Origin: Paracoccus suum
GTDB lineage: Bacteria; Pseudomonadota; Alphaproteobacteria; Rhodobacterales; Rhodobacteraceae
DNA: 32,000 nucleotides
Direction of reading: 5' to 3'
Assembly (NCBI RefSeq): GCF_003324675.1
Contig: NZ_CP030918.1
Span: 1,350,001 to 1,382,000, forward strand
Below, piece by piece: positions 957 through 24,131 of the stretch (position 1 is the stretch's first letter; every line of letters begins with the position of its first letter). Under the pieces are notes generated by a model. It saw nothing but the letters and a program-made list of their open reading frames with translations, was not told the DNA's origin and did not search any database. Made by a program: the position numbers and the translations under genes.

Positions 957-2150
957 GTGGAGCAACATCGAACCGATCCATCCTGGGCCCTGAAAGCGAC
1001 GTTGTTGGCCGTGGCGACGCTGACCATCATGTCAGGAACGGTCGTCGCGCCCGCGCTTCCTGCGATACGGCAGGCGTTCGAGGGTCAGGCGAACGTCGAA
1101 CTGATGAGCCGCATGGTGCTGACCTTGCCGGCCATTTTCGTCGTGATCTCGGCTCCGATTGCAGGCGCGTTGGCCGACCGTTACGGCCGCAAACGCCTGC
1201 TGCTGGTCTCGATCCTGCTTTACGCGGCCGCCGGCCTGGCGGGCGGGGTTTCCCAAAGCCTGCTTGGCATCCTCGTAAGCCGTGCGTTTTTCGGCCTTGC
1301 GGTCGGTGCGGTCATGACGGTTGGAACCGCACTGGTCGGCGACAATTTCGAGGGAGAGGCGCGGTCGCGCTTTTTCGGCCTGCAACAGGCGTTCACCCAG
1401 ATCGGCGGCGTGATCTTTGTCGTGGGCGGCGGTTTTCTGGCCGACCTCGACTGGCGCGCGCCGTTTCTGATCTATGGGCTCGCCCTGCCGATAGCCGTCG
1501 CTGTCATGACGGTCCTGCGCGAACCGGCCAGGGCGCAGCGCGCCGCAACTTTTTCCGGCGGAATTGAGGGCGACCAGAACTGGCCCCTTCTGGCCGTGCT
1601 GTGCCTGACTGCCTTCCTCGCGAACGCGCTGTTTTATACCGTGCCGACCCAGCTTTCATTTTATCTGAAGGATCTCGGTTATCCCAGTGCGCGGACCGTC
1701 GGCATCCTGATCGGGATATTCAATCTCGTGGCGGCAATCGCAGCACTCTCCTACGGGCGGGTCCGCAACCGGGCGAGTACGGTCGAGGTCTTTGCCGGTG
1801 CGTTCAGCCTGATGGCAGCGGGCGCGGTCGCCCTGTCCTTCGCCTATTCCTTCGCAGGATTGGTGGCGAGTCTCGCGGTCATGGGCTGCGGCCTTGGGAT
1901 GATGATGCCGAACATCATGGCTTCGGCCCTGCAGATCGCCCAACTTCGCTTGCGTGCCCGCGTAACGGGCATGACCACCGCCAGTATGTTCTTCGGGCAT
2001 TTCATGTCCCCCATCCTAAGCCAGCCTTTAATTGGCCAGGTCGGGTATGACGGTCTTTATCGCGCGGTGGGGATTTTCTACGCCGCGCTCGCCGTTATCG
2101 CGCTGGGGATTGTGATCGCCAGCATGCGAAGCCAACAAAAGATGGGTTGA
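957..2150 (+). CDS. MFS transporter (probable drug/redox-compound efflux)
   Basis: In-frame GTG at 957 lies 2 nt after the reductase TAA (952-954). The protein is highly hydrophobic with multiple TM segments, and the loop motif GALADRYGRKRLLL matches MFS motif A (GxxxDRxGRK). The track ORF start at 810 overlaps the reductase and is not used. Confidence 0.85.
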   Translation: MEQHRTDPSWALKATLLAVATLTIMSGTVVAPALPAIRQAFEGQANVELMSRMVLTLPAIFVVISAPIAGALADRYGRKRLLLVSILLYAAAGLAGGVSQSLLGILVSRAFFGLAVGAVMTVGTALVGDNFEGEARSRFFGLQQAFTQIGGVIFVVGGGFLADLDWRAPFLIYGLALPIAVAVMTVLREPARAQRAATFSGGIEGDQNWPLLAVLCLTAFLANALFYTVPTQLSFYLKDLGYPSARTVGILIGIFNLVAAIAALSYGRVRNRASTVEVFAGAFSLMAAGAVALSFAYSFAGLVASLAVMGCGLGMMMPNIMASALQIAQLRLRARVTGMTTASMFFGHFMSPILSQPLIGQVGYDGLYRAVGIFYAALAVIALGIVIASMRSQQKMG

Positions 2151-2223
2151 GGGGCGGCCGGAGAGACAGTCGGAGGGGCGCAGGACGCCCATCGAAGAAA
2201 AACGGGCGGCGCTGTCAGCTCGC

Positions 2224-2260
2224 AAGAAAAAAGGGCCAAGGCAATTATGCCCAAGCCCTT
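2224..2260 (-). terminator. Intrinsic terminator downstream of tRNA-Arg
   Basis: The minus strand reads AAGGGCTTGGGCATAATTGCCTTGGCCCTTTTTTCTT. Outer stem AAGGGC/GCCCTT and inner stem GGCA/TGCC are followed by a T-run. It begins about 9 nt after the tRNA 3' end. Confidence 0.6.
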
Positions 2261-2268
2261 GTTTCAAA

Positions 2269-2345
2269 TGGCGGACCCGGAGCGATTCGAACGCCCGACC
2301 CTCAGATTCGTAGTCTGATGCTCTATCCAGCTGAGCTACGGGTCC
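2269..2345 (-). tRNA. tRNA-Arg (anticodon ACG)
   Basis: The minus strand reads GGACCCGTAGCTCAGCTGGATAGAGCATCAGACTACGAATCTGAGGGTCGGGCGTTCGAATCGCTCCGGGTCCGCCA. Acceptor stem is GGACCCG/CGGGTCC, with D-arm GCTC..GAGC, anticodon loop CT-ACG-AA and T-arm GGGCG-TTCGAAT-CGCTC. CCA is encoded. Confidence 0.95.
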
Positions 2346-2388
2346 GTCGGTGGCGGGATGTAGTGCTTGGCGCGGGGGGGCGCAAGGG

Positions 2389-3813
2389 CTAATCCACCGG
2401 GTATGTCGATTGCAGGTCGCGCGGCAGGTACAACATGAATTGAGTGCCTTCGGCGTCGCTGCGCGCAAGCTCCAGCCGGCCGCCATGGCCGCGCACCAGA
2501 TCGGCGGCGATGGCGAGGCCAAGGCCGGTGCCCCCCTTGCGGCCGCCCGCCGCGAAGGGCTTGAACAGGGCCTCGCGTGCCTTCTCCGGCAGGCCGGGGC
2601 CGGTGTCGCCGACGCGCATCCACCACAGCGCCTCGTCCTCACCGGCGCCGATCTCGACCGTGCCGGGCTTGCCGGTCGCCTCGATCGCTTGGCGGGCGTT
2701 GCGGGCCAGGTTCGACAGCACGCGATAGAGCTGGTCGCGGTCGGCGCGGATGTTCAGCCCTGCGGGCACGTCGGTCAGCACCTCGACGCGGCCATCGCTC
2801 GCGGCCAGCGATTCCGCCTCGGCGACCTCGGCGACAAGTTTGGCAAGGTTGAAGCGGGTCAGCGTCGGCGCGGGCTCCTCGGCCTTGCCATAGGCGAGGG
2901 TCGTCTCGCACAGGCTGATAGCCCGGCGGATCGAATTCACCAGCTTGGGTGCAGCCCGGCGCACCGCGGGATCGGCGCTGTCCTCCAGCCGGTCGGCAAA
3001 GATCTGGCTAGTGGCGAGGATGTTGCGCAGATCGTGGCTGATCTTGGCCACCGCCTCGCCGAGGTTGGCCAGCCGCTCGCGCTGGCGCAGCGAGGATTGG
3101 ACGTTGGTCTGCAATTGCGCCAGGGCGGTCTCTGCCTCGCGCAGCTCGGCGGTAGGGGCATCAGGACGGATGATCGCGTCGCTGGTGCCGGGTGCCTGGG
3201 CGAAGGCGACCATATGCGTGATGACGCGCCGCATCGGCACCAGAATCAGCCGCTGCGCCGCGAGGTTCAGCAATAGCGCCGTCAGGATCGAGAACATGGC
3301 CGAGATCGCCAGAACCCGCACGCCAAAGTCGATCATCCCGGTGCGCAGCGGGCCGCTGGGCATGGTGATTTCGATCAGTTGCCCGGCGCCGTTAACGGGG
3401 GCGCCGATGACGCGGATCACCTCCTCCTTCGAGGTGAGAAGGCGCAGCATCGCATCGCGCGCGCCGGTCCAGAACGAAGTGCGGCGCAGATCATACGTCG
3501 CCGCAACCGGCGCCGGGATGGGCGAGGACAGCACCAACTGGCGAACGTCATCGCGCCGCAGCACGACGTTATAGACGCCAGCATTCTGCAGCAGCTCCTG
3601 CTCCAGATCCGCGGCGAGGGCATCGTCGGTTGTCAGCAGGGCGAGGCTGGCGATCTGCGCGCGCTCGAGCCGCGATTCGAGGTAGTCGATCCGAAAATTC
3701 GACAGCGAGGGTATGAGGATCAACACCTCCGCCAGCATGACGAAGGCGGCGGTCAAAACCGCAAACCGTCCCGAGAGCGTGTTGAATCTCATCGTTCTCT
3801 GGCGCGTCTCCAT
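2389..3813 (-). CDS. Membrane sensor histidine kinase (HisKA + HATPase_c), no cognate response regulator nearby
   Basis: H-box ISHDLRNIL, N-box LSNLARNARQA, G1 DTGPGLP and G2 GGTGLGLAIA are all present. There are two hydrophobic segments: an N-terminal one (FAVLTAAFVMLAEVLILIPSL) and one before the HisKA domain. The track start at 3846 is a TTG. ATG candidates are 3813 (METRQ) and 3792 (MRFNT), so the start is uncertain. Confidence 0.85.
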   Translation of the reverse strand: METRQRTMRFNTLSGRFAVLTAAFVMLAEVLILIPSLSNFRIDYLESRLERAQIASLALLTTDDALAADLEQELLQNAGVYNVVLRRDDVRQLVLSSPIPAPVAATYDLRRTSFWTGARDAMLRLLTSKEEVIRVIGAPVNGAGQLIEITMPSGPLRTGMIDFGVRVLAISAMFSILTALLLNLAAQRLILVPMRRVITHMVAFAQAPGTSDAIIRPDAPTAELREAETALAQLQTNVQSSLRQRERLANLGEAVAKISHDLRNILATSQIFADRLEDSADPAVRRAAPKLVNSIRRAISLCETTLAYGKAEEPAPTLTRFNLAKLVAEVAEAESLAASDGRVEVLTDVPAGLNIRADRDQLYRVLSNLARNARQAIEATGKPGTVEIGAGEDEALWWMRVGDTGPGLPEKAREALFKPFAAGGRKGGTGLGLAIAADLVRGHGGRLELARSDAEGTQFMLYLPRDLQSTYPVD

Positions 3814-20030: not shown

Positions 20031-20390
20031 TCAGTCGCGCAGGCCTTCGATCGGGCGCAGGATACTGAGGACCTTGAAACTTGATTTATCCACCCGCGCC
20101 AAGGTCTTGCCGATGACGGCATAGGCCTCGCCCGCAGGGGCATCGGTCAGGCCATAGCGGCCGGGTTCAGTTATGATATGCGCGTCAGGGTAGGTGTTTC
20201 CGACGATCACGCCCGCAGGCGCGGTGGCCACGTTTCCATCCTTGGCCGCGCAGGGCGCGCCGGCCTCGCAGGCGGGCACGCCGCCGCCAAGAAACGGGGC
20301 CACGACGCCGGTGTTGGCGGCGAGGGCCGGCAGCAGCACTCCAAAGCTCAGGGCCGCCGCAATGGCCGCTGGAACGGCAAGCTGGCGCAT
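20031..20390 (-). CDS. Small secreted protein of unknown function (possibly RcnB/YohN-like periplasmic domain)
   Basis: 119 aa from ATG 20390, with GAGAGG about 8 nt upstream. Signal peptide MRQLAVPAAIAAALSFGVLLPALA-AN. The C-terminal pattern Y..HII.EPGRYGL.DAP.GE.Y.VIG..L.RVD resembles RcnB-family proteins. The family assignment is weak. Confidence 0.6.
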   Translation of the reverse strand: MRQLAVPAAIAAALSFGVLLPALAANTGVVAPFLGGGVPACEAGAPCAAKDGNVATAPAGVIVGNTYPDAHIITEPGRYGLTDAPAGEAYAVIGKTLARVDKSSFKVLSILRPIEGLRD

Positions 20391-20463: not shown

Positions 20464-21831
20464 TCACGCGTGTCGCCGCGGATTGATGCGCAGCCGGATC
20501 CCATCGCGCCCCCGCACCGTCAGGCGCGCTGTGGGGACCGGGTCGACGCCGCCCCGTTCCAGATGCAGCGAACGGCAGATCATTGCCAGCAGCAGCGGCC
20601 CCTCGATCATGGCAAATCCCGCGCCGGGACAGACTCGCTGGCCGGCGCCAAAGGGGAAATAGGCCGTGCGGGCGCAGGTCTTGCCGTTGTCTGTGTCCCA
20701 ACGGTCGGGGTCGAATCCGTCCGGATCTTCCCACAGCCGCTGATGGCGGTGCAGGTGCCAGGGCGAGACAACGATCTGCGCGCCGCGCGGCACGGGCCGG
20801 TCGCGGAACGTCTCGGGGCAGGCGGCCTCGCGCACGAACATCGGCACCGGCGGATAAAGGCGCATCGCCTCGCGGAATACGGCACGGGCTGCTTTCAGGC
20901 GCCCGGCGGCGGCGAAGTCGGGGGCCTCGCGCCCTGGCCCCAGTTCGGCAAGCGCCTCAGCCGCGACACGGTCCTGCCAGTCAGGCGCGGCGGCCAGCAA
21001 CCACAGCGCCCAGGCGAGCGCCGAGGCCGAGGTCTCGTGCCCCGCCAGAAAAAATGTCGCGACCTGATCGACCATCTCGCGCGCGTCAAAGCAGGCGCCG
21101 GTCTGGGGATCTGGCGTGGTCATGATCTTGCTCGCCAGATCGTCCGGGGCGGTGCCGGCGGCAATGTCGCTTGCGCGCTGGCGCACGAGTGCCTCGATCA
21201 GCCCGCGGATGCGGGCGGCGCTGGCGCGAGTGCGGCGTGAATGCGGCCGGAACCATGCCGGTAGCGGCAGAATCGCCGCCAGGTTGACCAGCGGCTGCGC
21301 GTCCTGATGTGCGCGAAAGGCCGAAAAGACCTGCGCCGCCGTCCGATCCTCGATCGGCAGCGAGAACAATGTGCGAAAGATCACGTCGGCGGCGGCGTGG
21401 CTGGTCTCGGGCTCGACGTCGATCTCGGTTCCCGCCTGCGCGGCGAGGCGATCCTCGGCGGCGAGGCCGGCGGCCCACATGGCGGGGAATTGCTGGCGCA
21501 GGCGGCCGCCCTCGAAGGCCGGGTCGATGATCCGGCGTGCGCGCGCCCAGTCCTCGCCATTGGCGATGAACACGGAATTGCCGACAAGCGGCGCCAGGCC
21601 GGCCGCCAGACGGCGCGATTTAGGGAAATCATTCGGCCGGGTTTTCAGGATCAGCTCGACGAGCGAGGGATCGTTGCAGATGAAGCTGTGGATCACCGGG
21701 GTGCGAAACTCGGCCATCCAGGCGCGGAAAAGGCGCGTCGGCAAGGCCGAGAGCAAATCGCGCCGGAAGGCGCGCGCGAGGCCGAGGACCGTGCCCCGGT
21801 CGTCGCCGGTGACGGGTTTGGGCGGGATCAT
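20464..21831 (-). CDS. Cytochrome P450 (CYP4/CYP102-like sequence class)
   Basis: 455 aa. I-helix FFLAGHETSASAL, ExxR EAMRLYPPVP, PERF-like DPDRW and Cys-ligand loop FGAGQRVCPGAGFA. No ferredoxin or reductase gene is adjacent. ATG 21831 overlaps the upstream stop (ATGA). Confidence 0.93.
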   Translation of the reverse strand: MIPPKPVTGDDRGTVLGLARAFRRDLLSALPTRLFRAWMAEFRTPVIHSFICNDPSLVELILKTRPNDFPKSRRLAAGLAPLVGNSVFIANGEDWARARRIIDPAFEGGRLRQQFPAMWAAGLAAEDRLAAQAGTEIDVEPETSHAAADVIFRTLFSLPIEDRTAAQVFSAFRAHQDAQPLVNLAAILPLPAWFRPHSRRTRASAARIRGLIEALVRQRASDIAAGTAPDDLASKIMTTPDPQTGACFDAREMVDQVATFFLAGHETSASALAWALWLLAAAPDWQDRVAAEALAELGPGREAPDFAAAGRLKAARAVFREAMRLYPPVPMFVREAACPETFRDRPVPRGAQIVVSPWHLHRHQRLWEDPDGFDPDRWDTDNGKTCARTAYFPFGAGQRVCPGAGFAMIEGPLLLAMICRSLHLERGGVDPVPTARLTVRGRDGIRLRINPRRHA

Positions 21832-23054
21832 GGCGCTGGGGCCATGCCGGTGTGGCGGTTGACTGGCCGGGTGATGCGGCCCGGCGAGGGCGGCCGTCCG
21901 GCAAAGCGCGACGCCAGGCTACGCGGCCCGGCTGTGATCGCGAAGTAATCGTAATCGCCGGGCCGGTCGAAGGCACAGAGGTATTGGAAATGCAGCCGGA
22001 ACCAGCGATTTTTTAGCTCGGCCTGCCGCTGTGGCGACAGGGTCTGGGTGAATGCCGCCGACATGACCAGCGGAAGGTGTTGCGGGTCGGGGGCGACGCC
22101 ACAGACCGCAACCGGATCACACAACCCGAACGAGCAGGCGTCTCCCGGCGCGGTCACATCGACCCAGGCGATGTCCTGGCGCCCTGCCAGTTCATGCAGA
22201 TCGCGCCGCAACTGCGCCGCGCGCGGAAGGAACGCGGCCATGGGCACGACATGCCCCAATGTCAGCAGGCCCAGCGCCGGTCGCTCGGGCGGCGGCCCGG
22301 CACGCAGATGCGCCGCCATGACCGAGATGGCCAGATAGGCGCCGGACGAATGGCCGATCAACAGCACCTCGTCCCAATCCTCGGCCGCAATGGTGCCGAG
22401 GCGGTCCGTAAACCGGGTCAGCCGGTCCTGCAGGGCGGGGGGATAGGCGCCGCCGTCGCCCGCGGTGAAGGCGTAGTCATGCATCAGGTAATAGGCGAGG
22501 AGGCGGCCATCCAGCCGGCGAAACCCGGCCAGAATCCCCCATAGCGCGCCGGCCGCGGGGATGATGCCGATGGGCCAGAACCGAGGCAGGACGCGCGCCA
22601 CCAGCCACCAGACCACCCCCGCGACGATCAGCGCCAGCAGCAATTGCCCCAGCAGCACGGCGACGGGATAGAGCGCGGCGATCACCGGACCCCGCCGAAG
22701 GCGCATCAGCCGCCACAGCGCACCGCTGCCGATATAGGCCCAAGCCGTCTTGGCGAGTTGACCGTAGGTCGCGAGGATCGAGCGGCCCATCGAGGCTGCG
22801 ACCACGTCCGACCAGGCCAGAACCTCGATCTCGGCCTCGGTGATCTGGCCGTCGAATTTGCCTGTGACCCCCCAGCCGAAGCCGGTGCGATCACGGCGTG
22901 CACCGAGGGTCAGGGCATAGCCGCTGATCGCCGCCTGGTCGGCGCCCTCGCGCCGGTAAAGCTCGCGGTAGCGGCGCGGGGGGATCGGGTCATACCCCGG
23001 CAGGTACAGGACCTTGCGGCGGCGGACCGGCGCATCCGCGCCCGGCGGGATCAC
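21828..23054 (-). CDS. Membrane protein of unknown family with a serine-hydrolase-like GHSSG elbow
   Basis: 408 aa, GTG start at 23054 overlapping the sulfotransferase stop (GTGA). There are two adjacent hydrophobic helices (VIAALYPVAVLLGQLLLALIVAGVVWWLV; FWPIGIIPAAGALWGILAGF). The C-terminal domain has VLLIGHSSGAYLAI (GxSxG) and a Cys-containing segment APGDACSFGLCDPVAVCG. I cannot assign a named family. Confidence 0.7.
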   Translation of the reverse strand: MIPPGADAPVRRRKVLYLPGYDPIPPRRYRELYRREGADQAAISGYALTLGARRDRTGFGWGVTGKFDGQITEAEIEVLAWSDVVAASMGRSILATYGQLAKTAWAYIGSGALWRLMRLRRGPVIAALYPVAVLLGQLLLALIVAGVVWWLVARVLPRFWPIGIIPAAGALWGILAGFRRLDGRLLAYYLMHDYAFTAGDGGAYPPALQDRLTRFTDRLGTIAAEDWDEVLLIGHSSGAYLAISVMAAHLRAGPPPERPALGLLTLGHVVPMAAFLPRAAQLRRDLHELAGRQDIAWVDVTAPGDACSFGLCDPVAVCGVAPDPQHLPLVMSAAFTQTLSPQRQAELKNRWFRLHFQYLCAFDRPGDYDYFAITAGPRSLASRFAGRPPSPGRITRPVNRHTGMAPAP

Positions 23055-23947
23055 AGGACCGCCGCGTCGCCGTCGCCCCGTCCCTTCGGCTGACGTTTTT
23101 GCAGCCGGGCATCGCGGTGCGGGCGCAAGATCGCGTGGACATGGCTGTAGAGGGCAACGTCCAGCGGGTTTTTCTCGCGGATTCGGGCAACGATTTCGGG
23201 CGTGACCTCGACCTCGGTCTCGCGGGTCGCAGGCGTGCGGCGCAGATGTTCCCGCGGCATCCGGCCCGGGTTGCCGGTCAGGGCAAAAAAGGTCGTGAAG
23301 GAAAAGGCGTACATTTCCAGCAGGCCGATGAAGGCGAATTTCTCCATGGCGTTGCGCAGGACGGTGGCGCGGTCGGCCTGTGGGCCGGCCACGAAGCGCG
23401 CCATCTTGTCGTGCGAGGCCGGGTGCTCGACATAGCTCAGTAGGGTCGGAAACTGGGCGATGAACTGGCGATGCGGGGGATGCATCTCGGTGCGCTGGTA
23501 GCGGTAGTCCGAGACAACGCGCGCCACCGGCGCCCGCAGGATGGTCATCAACTGCAGCTCCGGGCGCGCGGCCTGGATGCGCGTTGCCAGCGGGAACGGG
23601 ATATGCCCCGAGGCCGACCGGACCCGCGCCAGATCCGGCGAGGCGATGAACTGGTCGACGCAGTCGTTCAGCTGCTGATCGTGGGTGCGATCGCGGTTGG
23701 TGTAGTCGATATGGACGTTCTTGTAGGGTTTAAGGACCGCGCGCAGTTCGTTCGAAAAGGACGAGCCTGCCGTCTTGGGGATATGGACAAAGAACCAGGG
23801 CGCGGCGGGCGGCGCCGCAGCGAGATAATCGTCCAGCGACTGGGTCTTGAGGTCCCCGAAACGCACATCCGGCCCCCTTGCGCCAGTGCCGCGCGACCTG
23901 CTGTCTGCGGCTGAATGGGGCTTAGCATCGCCGTTTCGCGCTGCCAA
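23051..23947 (-). CDS. Sulfotransferase family protein (Sulfotransfer_2-like)
   Basis: WFFVHIPKTAGSSFSNEL matches the PAPS 5'-phosphosulfate-binding loop (IPKTxGTS type) of family 2 sulfotransferases. The start is uncertain: TTG 23947 (track) or in-frame GTG 23866. There is no in-frame ATG before the motif. Confidence 0.8.
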   Translation of the reverse strand: MAARNGDAKPHSAADSRSRGTGARGPDVRFGDLKTQSLDDYLAAAPPAAPWFFVHIPKTAGSSFSNELRAVLKPYKNVHIDYTNRDRTHDQQLNDCVDQFIASPDLARVRSASGHIPFPLATRIQAARPELQLMTILRAPVARVVSDYRYQRTEMHPPHRQFIAQFPTLLSYVEHPASHDKMARFVAGPQADRATVLRNAMEKFAFIGLLEMYAFSFTTFFALTGNPGRMPREHLRRTPATRETEVEVTPEIVARIREKNPLDVALYSHVHAILRPHRDARLQKRQPKGRGDGDAAVL

Positions 23948-23966: not shown

Positions 23967-24131
23967 TCAGGTCGCGCGGTCGATCAAGATGGTCACGAAC
24001 AACCCGACAAGCGCGAAGATGAGGGCGAAGACCAGGATGTAAAGCGCCCGGTCTTTGACGTTGCCACCCAGTGCCGCGGCCCGGCGCCAGCCGAGCAATC
24101 CACCGATGACGAGTGCTGCGAGAATGATCAT
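23967..24131 (-). CDS. Small (54 aa) two-helix membrane protein, unknown function
   Basis: ATG 24131: MIILAALVIGGLLGWRRAAALGGNVKDRALYILVFALIFALVGLFVTILIDRAT. Two hydrophobic helices are separated by a basic loop. It ends 19 nt upstream of the sulfotransferase ORF on the same strand. The longer track ORF (to 24227) adds an Arg-rich, unlikely N-terminus. Confidence 0.5.
   Translation of the reverse strand: MIILAALVIGGLLGWRRAAALGGNVKDRALYILVFALIFALVGLFVTILIDRAT

Follow-up and report, generated by a model that had tools for sequence, protein, structure and literature searches.

A widely distributed hydrolase-like/cytochrome P450 gene pair, related to the Cj1411c cassette of Campylobacter jejuni, occurs with a lineage-specific sulfotransferase gene in Paracoccus suum

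In the alphaproteobacterium Paracoccus suum, three minus-strand genes encoding a sulfotransferase, a membrane protein and a cytochrome P450 are joined by short start/stop overlaps, an arrangement that raises the question of whether they constitute a dedicated pathway in which a substrate is hydroxylated and then sulfated, or whether the conserved functional unit is smaller than the trio. The genes lie in a stretch of 32,000 nucleotides (contig NZ_CP030918.1, positions 1,350,001 to 1,382,000), referred to here as the window, in which all coordinates of P. suum features are given. The two downstream genes belong to a widely distributed and essentially uncharacterised hydrolase-P450 module, of which one relative, from Campylobacter jejuni, has been studied phenotypically, and the trio of P. 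suum represents a variant of it that is specific to this lineage. In functional terms, the two genes probably form a lipid- or glycolipid-editing module, to which the sulfotransferase was added in the P. suum lineage.

The three open reading frames (ORFs) extend over positions 23947/23866-23051 (sulfotransferase), 23054-21828 (middle protein) and 21831-20464 (P450), and their ends overlap by four nucleotides at both junctions, GTGA at 23051..23054 and ATGA at 21828..21831. Apart from the start at 23866, these features had been reported in a preliminary description made from the sequence alone and are present exactly as given there, as are the motifs HIPKTAGSS (23759-23785), GHSSG (22341-22355), AGHETS (21028-21045), EAMR (20860-20871) and FGAGQRVCPG (20623-20652). 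The overlaps also support the proposal that the co-oriented ORFs are translationally coupled. An ATGA overlap between the hydrolase-like and P450 genes is likewise found in Zobellella and C. jejuni.

Conservation of the arrangement was followed in 82 loci of Rhodobacterales in which the middle gene is present, 80 of them from a scan of one genome per species with an alignment of 12 close homologs, which returned Rhodobacterales only and covered genera that include Paracoccus, Ruegeria, Sulfitobacter, Jannaschia, Rhodovulum, Thioclava and Roseovarius, and the other two from P. zhejiangensis and P. denitrificans. Synteny counts rest on tblastn, as greedy ORF calling, misled by shadow ORFs in this GC-rich DNA, under-counted genes. 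In 78 of the 82 loci, the gene directly downstream of the middle gene encodes a P450 ortholog (57-73% identity), and a four-nucleotide overlap between both genes is available in 68 of these 78 (ATGA in 62 and GTGA in six), which is far beyond chance; the middle-family protein is almost always translationally coupled to a P450. In contrast, no sulfotransferase homolog was detected within 6 kb on either side of the middle gene in any of the 82 loci. Elsewhere, the trio was found only in two metagenomic contigs (L083 and L085) from one close relative, with approximately 83% nucleotide identity, which encodes proteins 82-85% identical to those of P. suum, is collinear with it from ppx through the P450 gene and has the same GTGA overlap between the sulfotransferase and hydrolase-like genes. 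As a conserved pathway, the three-gene module put forward in the preliminary description is not supported by this survey, which gave the lack of trio synteny in related genomes that the description itself had named as a refutation. From these comparisons, the conserved unit appears to be the hydrolase-like/P450 pair, with the sulfotransferase as an apparent add-on of the P. suum lineage. The four loci that depart from the pair correspond to one truncated contig and to three Rhodobacter species, R. lacus, R. capsulatus SP36 and R. maris (L040, L057 and L066), in which the hydrolase-like gene is kept and no P450 is found within 6 kb. In R. capsulatus, this gene is directly preceded by an M48 peptidase gene, and the gene after it, which is oppositely oriented, encodes an M32 carboxypeptidase.

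The genes preceding the pair differ among lineages. In P. zhejiangensis and P. denitrificans, where the middle gene and the P450 gene share a four-nucleotide overlap, the genes upstream encode a VWA_CoxE protein and an M48 peptidase, not a sulfotransferase, and most Paracoccus genomes have the order small transmembrane protein, VWA_CoxE, M48 peptidase, hydrolase and P450 (about -850 to -3000 from the hydrolase gene). In P. suum, the sulfotransferase occupies the position of the VWA and M48 genes, which are missing there. The remaining neighbours of the pair are housekeeping genes that vary with lineage (in roseobacters, those for RNase E and CcdA; also ppx and rlmE), and no dedicated regulator or transporter was seen beside the Rhodobacterales pair. 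As a side observation, the M48 protease of Paracoccus and an ICMT-type methyltransferase that adjoins the hydrolase-like gene in Pararhizobium (see below) recall two enzymes of post-prenylation CAAX processing, which may be a coincidence. Another concerns the record CP059262.1 (L079, 'MAG: Exiguobacterium profundum isolate SSD5 chromosome'), with a GC content of 67.6% and a hydrolase and P450 that are 58% and 64% identical, respectively, to those of P. suum. Given this GC content and these Rhodobacterales-like genes, its organism label looks wrong.

The middle protein (DRW48_06695, 408 aa, minus strand, 21828..23054) is 100% identical to a database entry named hypothetical protein. It reached the threshold of no Pfam or NCBIfam family and had no Pfam match at E<=0.05, its best score being 13 bits against LIDHydrolase (cut-off 27), and a search of its sequence against the PDB returned nothing significant. 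It defines a large unnamed family, with no Pfam model and no significant structural relative, and has homologs in more than 6,700 clusters at 90% identity. An exhaustive search of representatives yielded 1,284 clusters at 50% identity (320 of them below E=1e-30), most members aligning over their full length of approximately 400 aa. An alignment of 46 diverse members (27-58% identity) contains the invariant residues R13, G20, P23, W81, E229, H235, S236, G238, W297, D305 and H355, and a second alignment (A3) has the same invariant core. Ser236 is the centre of a G-H-S-S-G nucleophile elbow (22341..22355, minus strand) between a predicted strand (229-235) and a predicted helix (238-251), and the protein bears the sequence signature of alpha/beta hydrolases, that is, a G-x-S-x-G elbow with the serine, acid and histidine in order. 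An AlphaFold (AF2) model with a predicted local distance difference test score (pLDDT) of 91.4 and a predicted template modelling score (pTM) of 0.91 is consistent with this signature, as it places Ser236, Asp305 and His355 after predicted strands 229-235, 295-301 and 329-332, in the order typical of the fold.

The same model predicts that the hydrolase-like domain is split by a helical insertion of approximately 140 residues, which includes a two-helix hydrophobic hairpin (residues 121-181, minus strand, 22512..22694) that is a predicted membrane anchor and whose position is conserved across the family. Its helices span residues ~122-160 and 159-178 according to hydropathy (Kyte-Doolittle maximum of 2.55) and 121-155 and 157-181 in the AlphaFold model. 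Weak clan-level Pfam matches, to Abhydrolase_6, LIDHydrolase and Lipase_3, were each obtained for 13-14 of the 46 members (best E of about 3e-5), and a profile of the family matched alpha/beta hydrolases of the PDB at the elbow only (E>=0.04). The likeness to lipases and esterases of these families consists of the G-H-S-x-G elbow and the Ser-Asp-His order, whereas the scores below the Pfam cut-offs, the lack of a significant PDB fold match and the split domain set the middle protein apart. Sequence and model together indicate that it is alpha/beta-hydrolase-like and in no described family. The two transmembrane helices, the GxSxG elbow and the absence of a nameable family had all been noted in the preliminary description and hold up here, and its suggestion of a membrane-anchored serine-hydrolase-like protein gains support from the invariant Ser-Asp-His residues and the predicted hairpin.

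The P450 (455 aa, minus strand, 20464..21831) is a clear member of Pfam PF00067 (p450; 223.7 bits, cut-off 22.8, E=5.3e-66), with FGAGQRVCPG at residues 394-403, AGHETS at 263-268 and EAMR at 321-324. Its best solved relatives in the PDB are 7wzl, on which nothing was found in the literature, CYP97A3/LUT5, CYP102 and CYP4B1 (E=1e-29 to 1e-49), which supports a CYP4/CYP102/CYP97-like class and bears out the earlier CYP4/CYP102-like placement. Characterised CYP4, CYP102 and CYP97 members hydroxylate long aliphatic or isoprenoid chains. The P. suum protein shares canonical motifs with this group, which includes P450 BM3, and differs from it in being obligately paired with a membrane hydrolase-like protein and in lacking a fused or adjacent reductase; its identity to Cj1411c-type P450s is also higher than to any of the three families. 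No transmembrane segment of its own is apparent, since its hydropathy maximum corresponds to the buried L-helix. Separately, clustering at 90% identity placed this P450 under a 48-aa 'hypothetical protein' of Serratia fonticola together with 40-46-aa fragments from Pantoea, a grouping that suggests an artefact of the clustering or contaminated assemblies in these enterobacteria.

The only P450 of this group that has been studied is Cj1411c from C. jejuni, a major food-borne pathogen, where it affects capsule and virulence. Cj1411c has been described as the first P450 of a bacterium to be bound to the membrane. Of this protein, 83% is membrane-bound, the inner-membrane fraction induces a spin shift in it, and deletion mutants have less capsular polysaccharide and are reduced in serum resistance and invasion (PMC3784454). 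The corresponding C. jejuni contig (L092), retrieved by means of a published native-sequence primer, carries a hydrolase-like ORF of 373 aa (573-1694) followed by the gene for Cj1411c (1691-3052), with an ATGA overlap, and then, after another four-nucleotide overlap, a gene for a 139-aa membrane protein. The fragment upstream of the pair encodes the C-terminus of a PF05159 protein; the cassette directly follows kpsS and lies at the end of the kps capsule locus. We take the ORF upstream of Cj1411c to be Cj1412c and the small downstream membrane protein to be Cj1410c, following the NCTC 11168 numbering, and Cj1411c itself is presumably CYP172A1, a name under which no paper was found. In the searchable literature, the ORF upstream of Cj1411c appeared in one table of a genome-wide association study only, nothing was found for 81-176 locus tags or Cj1410c, and the combination of 'KpsS' with 'cytochrome P450' returned unrelated physiology papers only.

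Both proteins of the C. jejuni pair are homologous to those of the window. The hydrolase-like ORF aligns with the P. suum middle protein over 378 residues by BLASTP (E=8e-27) and is matched by the family profile with a probability of 100% (E=2e-54); it carries the family motifs, and its own Pfam scores fall below the curated cut-offs. Cj1411c and the P. suum P450 share 33% identity over 454 aligned residues (267 bits, E=4e-89), a score above that of any solved P450 scored, and would be placed in different CYP families because this identity is below the conventional 40%. They have the same AGHET and heme-loop patterns, and neither contains a hydrophobic anchor according to hydropathy, the maximum of each being the buried L-helix, whereas the hydrolase-like partner does. 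Of the features of a Cj1411c-type cassette, a hairpin hydrolase-like gene directly upstream with a start/stop overlap is found in the window, in addition to homology of both partners, which is full-length for the hydrolases. The two loci differ in that the C. jejuni cassette includes a third small gene and kpsS, neither of which is present in the P. suum window, where an upstream sulfotransferase gene is found instead, and in that experimental data concern the C. jejuni P450 (PMC3784454) and not that of the window. The earlier remark that no bacterial pathway with this architecture had been described holds for the trio, yet it overlooked the homology to the C. jejuni pair and the published capsule phenotype.

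Beyond Rhodobacterales and Campylobacter, a search started from a distant member detected homologs in Oceanimonas, Zobellella, Oceanisphaera, Rahnella, Enterobacter and Sulfuricurvum. The pair occurs in Beta- and Gammaproteobacteria and in Campylobacterota, in most cases next to capsule genes of the KpsS/KpsC type, and the family spans at least four bacterial classes; none of the complete E. coli genomes carries the cassette. The pairs from Zobellella, Rahnella, Sulfuricurvum, Polaromonas and C. jejuni have identities of approximately 23-35% for the hydrolase and 33-43% for the P450, the upper value being the highest identity of the window P450 to a hydrolase-linked P450 outside Rhodobacterales (Polaromonas). 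Identities of both proteins co-vary, with r=0.88 for 28 pairs from eight species. In Zobellella, Sulfuricurvum and Rahnella, the P450 gene directly follows the hydrolase-like gene and precedes an ORF of 115-127 aa, and genes of the PF05159 (KpsS/KpsC) type adjoin the cassette in Zobellella, Sulfuricurvum and C. jejuni. On plasmid 1 of Polaromonas sp. JS666 (L093), the order is glycosyltransferases, a capsular polysaccharide biosynthesis gene (identified by annotation and not by Pfam scan), a GT1/GT28-type glycosyltransferase, the hydrolase, the P450 and a small ORF. Just downstream of this cassette lies a second, divergent hydrolase-like copy (L093:9947-11149, 400 aa), with weak Lipase_3 and Thioesterase matches. 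Different partners are found in more divergent members of the family, in Methylorubrum extorquens CM4 (pCMU01, L094:5944-8504), where a GT1/GT28 (EryCIII/UDPGT-like) glycosyltransferase is joined by a four-nucleotide overlap, and in Pararhizobium qamdonense (plasmid p2, L095:5992-8391), where an ICMT/PEMT-type membrane methyltransferase is joined in the same way and a second small hydrolase, adjoining a two-component system and pstS, is also present.

The third small membrane protein encoded after the P450 gene (L092:3049-3468, L089:8564-8911, L090:8512-8871, L091:8528-8911 and L093:9591-9935) belongs to no Pfam family. It is far better conserved than its two neighbours, with 65-81% identity among Zobellella, Rahnella, Sulfuricurvum and C. 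jejuni, and contains the motifs HFVNAS-FNGYAWES-SSHAWRER and DHC-RANKREQP; the Polaromonas ORF was assigned from position and size only.

The first gene of the trio encodes a carbohydrate-type, 3'-phosphoadenosine-5'-phosphosulfate (PAPS)-dependent sulfotransferase of the Sulfotransfer_2 family (minus strand, 23051..23866; 271 aa from GTG 23866). Its assignment to PF03567 (29.9 bits, cut-off 22) and the invariance of H-x-P-K-T-A-G-S-S and R-x-P-x-x-R-V-x-S, which correspond to the 5'-phosphosulfate-binding (5'-PSB) and 3'-phosphate-binding (3'-PB) motifs, across 12 homologs agree with the earlier call of a PAPS-dependent enzyme. The ORF proposed in the preliminary description is real, but its TTG start at 23947 is not favoured. 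All 12 homologs start with M-x-F-G-D-L, which aligns with V28 of the ORF as listed, so that GTG 23866 is almost certainly the start; it is preceded by the Shine-Dalgarno sequence AAGGGGG, and the TTG codon would add 27 poorly supported residues. The annotations differ accordingly (271 aa in RefSeq, 298 aa in GenBank). In a profile search, the closest relative was the heparan sulfate 6-O-sulfotransferase HS6ST (E=4e-7), followed by 3-O- and 2-O-sulfotransferases, and Foldseek matched the AlphaFold model (pLDDT of 85) to heparan sulfate 6-O-, 2-O- and 3-O-sulfotransferases (E=8e-6 to 8e-4, template modelling (TM) score of about 0.5, probability of 1.00), while cytosolic SULTs matched it much worse (E of about 1e-2, TM score of about 0.33). 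On these sequence and model data, the gene is judged to encode an intact enzyme.

A word-indexed search detected 212 relatives of this sulfotransferase, and those with 44-48% identity are located among GT2, GT4, GT8 and GT61 glycosyltransferases and methyltransferases, with no P450 or hydrolase-like gene beside them. The P. suum protein resembles the heparan sulfate enzymes and the bacterial glycan-island Sulfotransfer_2 proteins in Pfam match, PAPS motifs, profile and fold, whereas its gene is not embedded among glycosyltransferases and is instead translationally coupled to the hydrolase-P450 pair. An analogy drawn previously with eukaryotic phase I/phase II metabolism, in which a P450 acts before a SULT, reflects the joint encoding of a P450 and a PAPS-dependent sulfotransferase; it is weak, as the P. 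suum enzyme is of the carbohydrate type in sequence and predicted fold, not a small-molecule SULT, and the combination is limited to one narrow lineage. The GC content of the gene is 65.4%, compared with approximately 70% for its neighbours, and its GC content at third codon positions (GC3), 83.8%, equals theirs. The latter value rules out a very recent foreign insertion and points, despite the lower overall GC, to an established rather than fresh acquisition.

With regard to function, the probable lipid or glycolipid editing by the pair can be pictured as follows. The hairpin would hold the hydrolase-like protein on the cytoplasmic side of the inner membrane, where it would recruit or tether the P450 in a complex, as suggested by the tight translational coupling, the co-divergence of both proteins and the reported membrane association of Cj1411c. 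The hydrolase-like protein would present a membrane lipid or edit it through deacylation or transacylation. An aliphatic chain of that lipid would then be hydroxylated by the P450, and the hydroxylated product would feed the assembly of an envelope glycoconjugate or glycolipid. A membrane lipid or glycolipid as the substrate is suggested by the Ser-Asp-His signature, by partners that act on lipids (GT1 and ICMT) and by the class of chain-hydroxylating P450s, and a link to envelope glycoconjugate assembly by the C. jejuni phenotype and the repeated occurrence beside KpsS/KpsC genes. The proposal of the preliminary description that the genes act on a lipid or glycoconjugate of the envelope is supported as probable. 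In P. suum, the sulfotransferase, inserted upstream and translationally coupled, may sulfate the product of the module or an attached sugar. Hydroxylation followed by sulfation, as first proposed, may take place in this organism; the trio is not conserved.

Several observations weigh against this picture. The middle-protein model had no match in the PDB at E<=1e-3 (Foldseek; the best were esterases, with E=0.11 and a TM score of about 0.2). The capsule phenotype of C. jejuni comes from one study, which used Alcian-blue staining (PMC3784454). No ferredoxin or reductase is encoded among the conserved neighbours of the pair, in line with the preliminary description. Neither the third small protein (tblastn with four orthologs, E<=0.01) nor a KpsS/KpsC (PF05159) homolog (tblastn with four proteins) was found in the 32-kb window or the Rhodobacterales loci, and for this reason the role of the pair in Rhodobacterales may differ from capsule assembly and be a more general lipid modification. 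Finally, the functional link of the sulfotransferase to the pair is inferred from adjacency only, with the four-nucleotide overlap kept in two close lineages.

Two alternatives concern the sulfotransferase. It may be an unrelated passenger, that is, a glycan sulfotransferase that replaced the VWA/CoxE and M48 genes, uses the expression signals of the operon and sulfates a separate exopolysaccharide or lipopolysaccharide. This is a serious possibility, if short of probable, given that the gene is missing from all 82 Rhodobacterales loci, that other Paracoccus have VWA_CoxE and Peptidase_M48 genes at its position, that its relatives lie among GT2, GT4, GT8 and GT61 glycosyltransferases and methyltransferases, that its predicted fold resembles that of carbohydrate sulfotransferases and that its GC content is below that of its neighbours. 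Nevertheless, the exact GTGA coupling has been maintained in two lineages, and the pair itself is linked to glycan and capsule loci elsewhere, so that such an enzyme need not have come to lie beside it by chance. The other alternative is a dedicated three-gene pathway, in which the lipid that the hydrolase handles would be hydroxylated by the P450 and O-sulfated at this new position by the sulfotransferase, to give a sulfated hydroxy-lipid peculiar to the P. suum lineage. The overlaps at both junctions, the retention of the arrangement in the second lineage, the intact PAPS motifs and the host-like GC3 are in keeping with it, as is the GT1-type glycosyltransferase for lipophilic acceptors that adjoins the hydrolase in Polaromonas and Methylorubrum, which suggests that the module product can receive a polar head-group. 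Such a pathway is nonetheless rather unlikely, as the pair does without the sulfotransferase in 82 of 82 loci, the relatives of the enzyme reside in glycan islands without P450 or hydrolase, its nearest solved relatives act on sugars and not on aliphatic hydroxyls, and no gene for PAPS synthesis was noticed in a rough survey of the window, in which most ORFs were not scanned for families.

Two further explanations concern the substrate of the pair. An isoprenoid (a carotenoid, quinone or hopanoid-like compound) could be hydroxylated on its ring or chain by a CYP97-like P450, the hydrolase acting as an esterase for the product. CYP97A3/LUT5, a plant carotenoid hydroxylase, is indeed the second-best solved relative of the P450 (E=2.5e-41), the best sub-threshold NCBIfam matches are terpenoid oxygenases, and many Paracoccus and roseobacters make carotenoids. 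The CYP4 and CYP102 fatty-acid hydroxylases, however, match the P450 about equally well, no isoprenoid-pathway gene is present among the conserved neighbours, and the pair is also found inside capsule or glycan loci of C. jejuni, Sulfuricurvum, Rahnella and Zobellella, which makes this substrate improbable. That the pair serves the catabolism or detoxification of an ester or xenobiotic from outside the cell is very improbable: an esterase combined with a P450 is frequent in catabolism, and the top, non-significant fold matches of the middle protein (Foldseek) are xenobiotic esterases, namely the chloramphenicol-metabolising EstDL136 and a pyrethroid hydrolase, but across Rhodobacterales the pair sits among housekeeping genes (RNase E, CcdA, ppx and rlmE) and has no regulator, transporter or redox partner of its own close by, its hydrolase is predicted to be membrane-anchored, and the C. 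jejuni phenotype concerns the capsule.

The preferred reading, a two-gene lipid- or glycolipid-editing module, can be extended to a bolder proposal that we regard as speculative and, taken as a whole, unlikely. To our knowledge, the origin of the lyso form of the phosphatidylglycerol terminus of capsules has not been settled. In this extension, the pair would be a general device for editing lipid anchors, deacylating and hydroxylating a glycerophospholipid of the inner leaflet and thereby making an acceptor for envelope glycans, while the decoration would vary by lineage: in Campylobacter and Zobellella, it would yield KpsS/KpsC-dependent capsules, in Polaromonas and Methylorubrum, GT1-dependent glycolipids, and in P. 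suum, it would be sulfation. KpsS and KpsC build a Kdo (3-deoxy-D-manno-octulosonic acid) linker on (lyso)phosphatidylglycerol (PMC7694667), and a 2025 review on capsule attachment makes no mention of the origin of the lyso-lipid, of a P450 or of a hydrolase. If true, the proposal would explain both the role and the membrane association of Cj1411c, would have a bearing on the formation of the (lyso)phosphatidylglycerol terminus in ABC-transporter capsules and would imply that P. suum produces a new sulfated hydroxy-lipid or glycolipid.

Irrespective of this extension, an anchorless P450 with an obligate, anchored partner could account in a simple way for the finding that Cj1411c is associated with the membrane. 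The Rhodobacterales pair would flag an oxygen-dependent modification of membrane lipids encoded in the core genome, and the P. suum sulfotransferase variant may serve as a natural experiment that shows what polar group the product of the module can receive.

The surroundings of the operon contain two further small genes on the minus strand, and a scan for promoter and terminator consensus sequences gave counts no higher than the shuffle level. Upstream, at 23967..24131, a small membrane protein of 54 aa is encoded from ATG 24131; tblastn matches to it lie upstream of the pair in approximately 25 loci, it is conserved at this position in many Paracoccaceae, and counterparts of 54-58 aa were called as genes in L002 and L085. 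Directly downstream of the P450 gene, at 20031..20390, DRW48_06685 encodes a small predicted secreted protein of 119 aa with a signal-peptide-like N-terminus, preceded by GAGAGG. It had no homolog among the 82 loci (tblastn), is a singleton cluster in a collection of 15 billion proteins and is thus specific to P. suum, and its link to the hydrolase-P450 module is doubtful. The UniRef name that it carries, 'Excinuclease ABC subunit A', is implausible.

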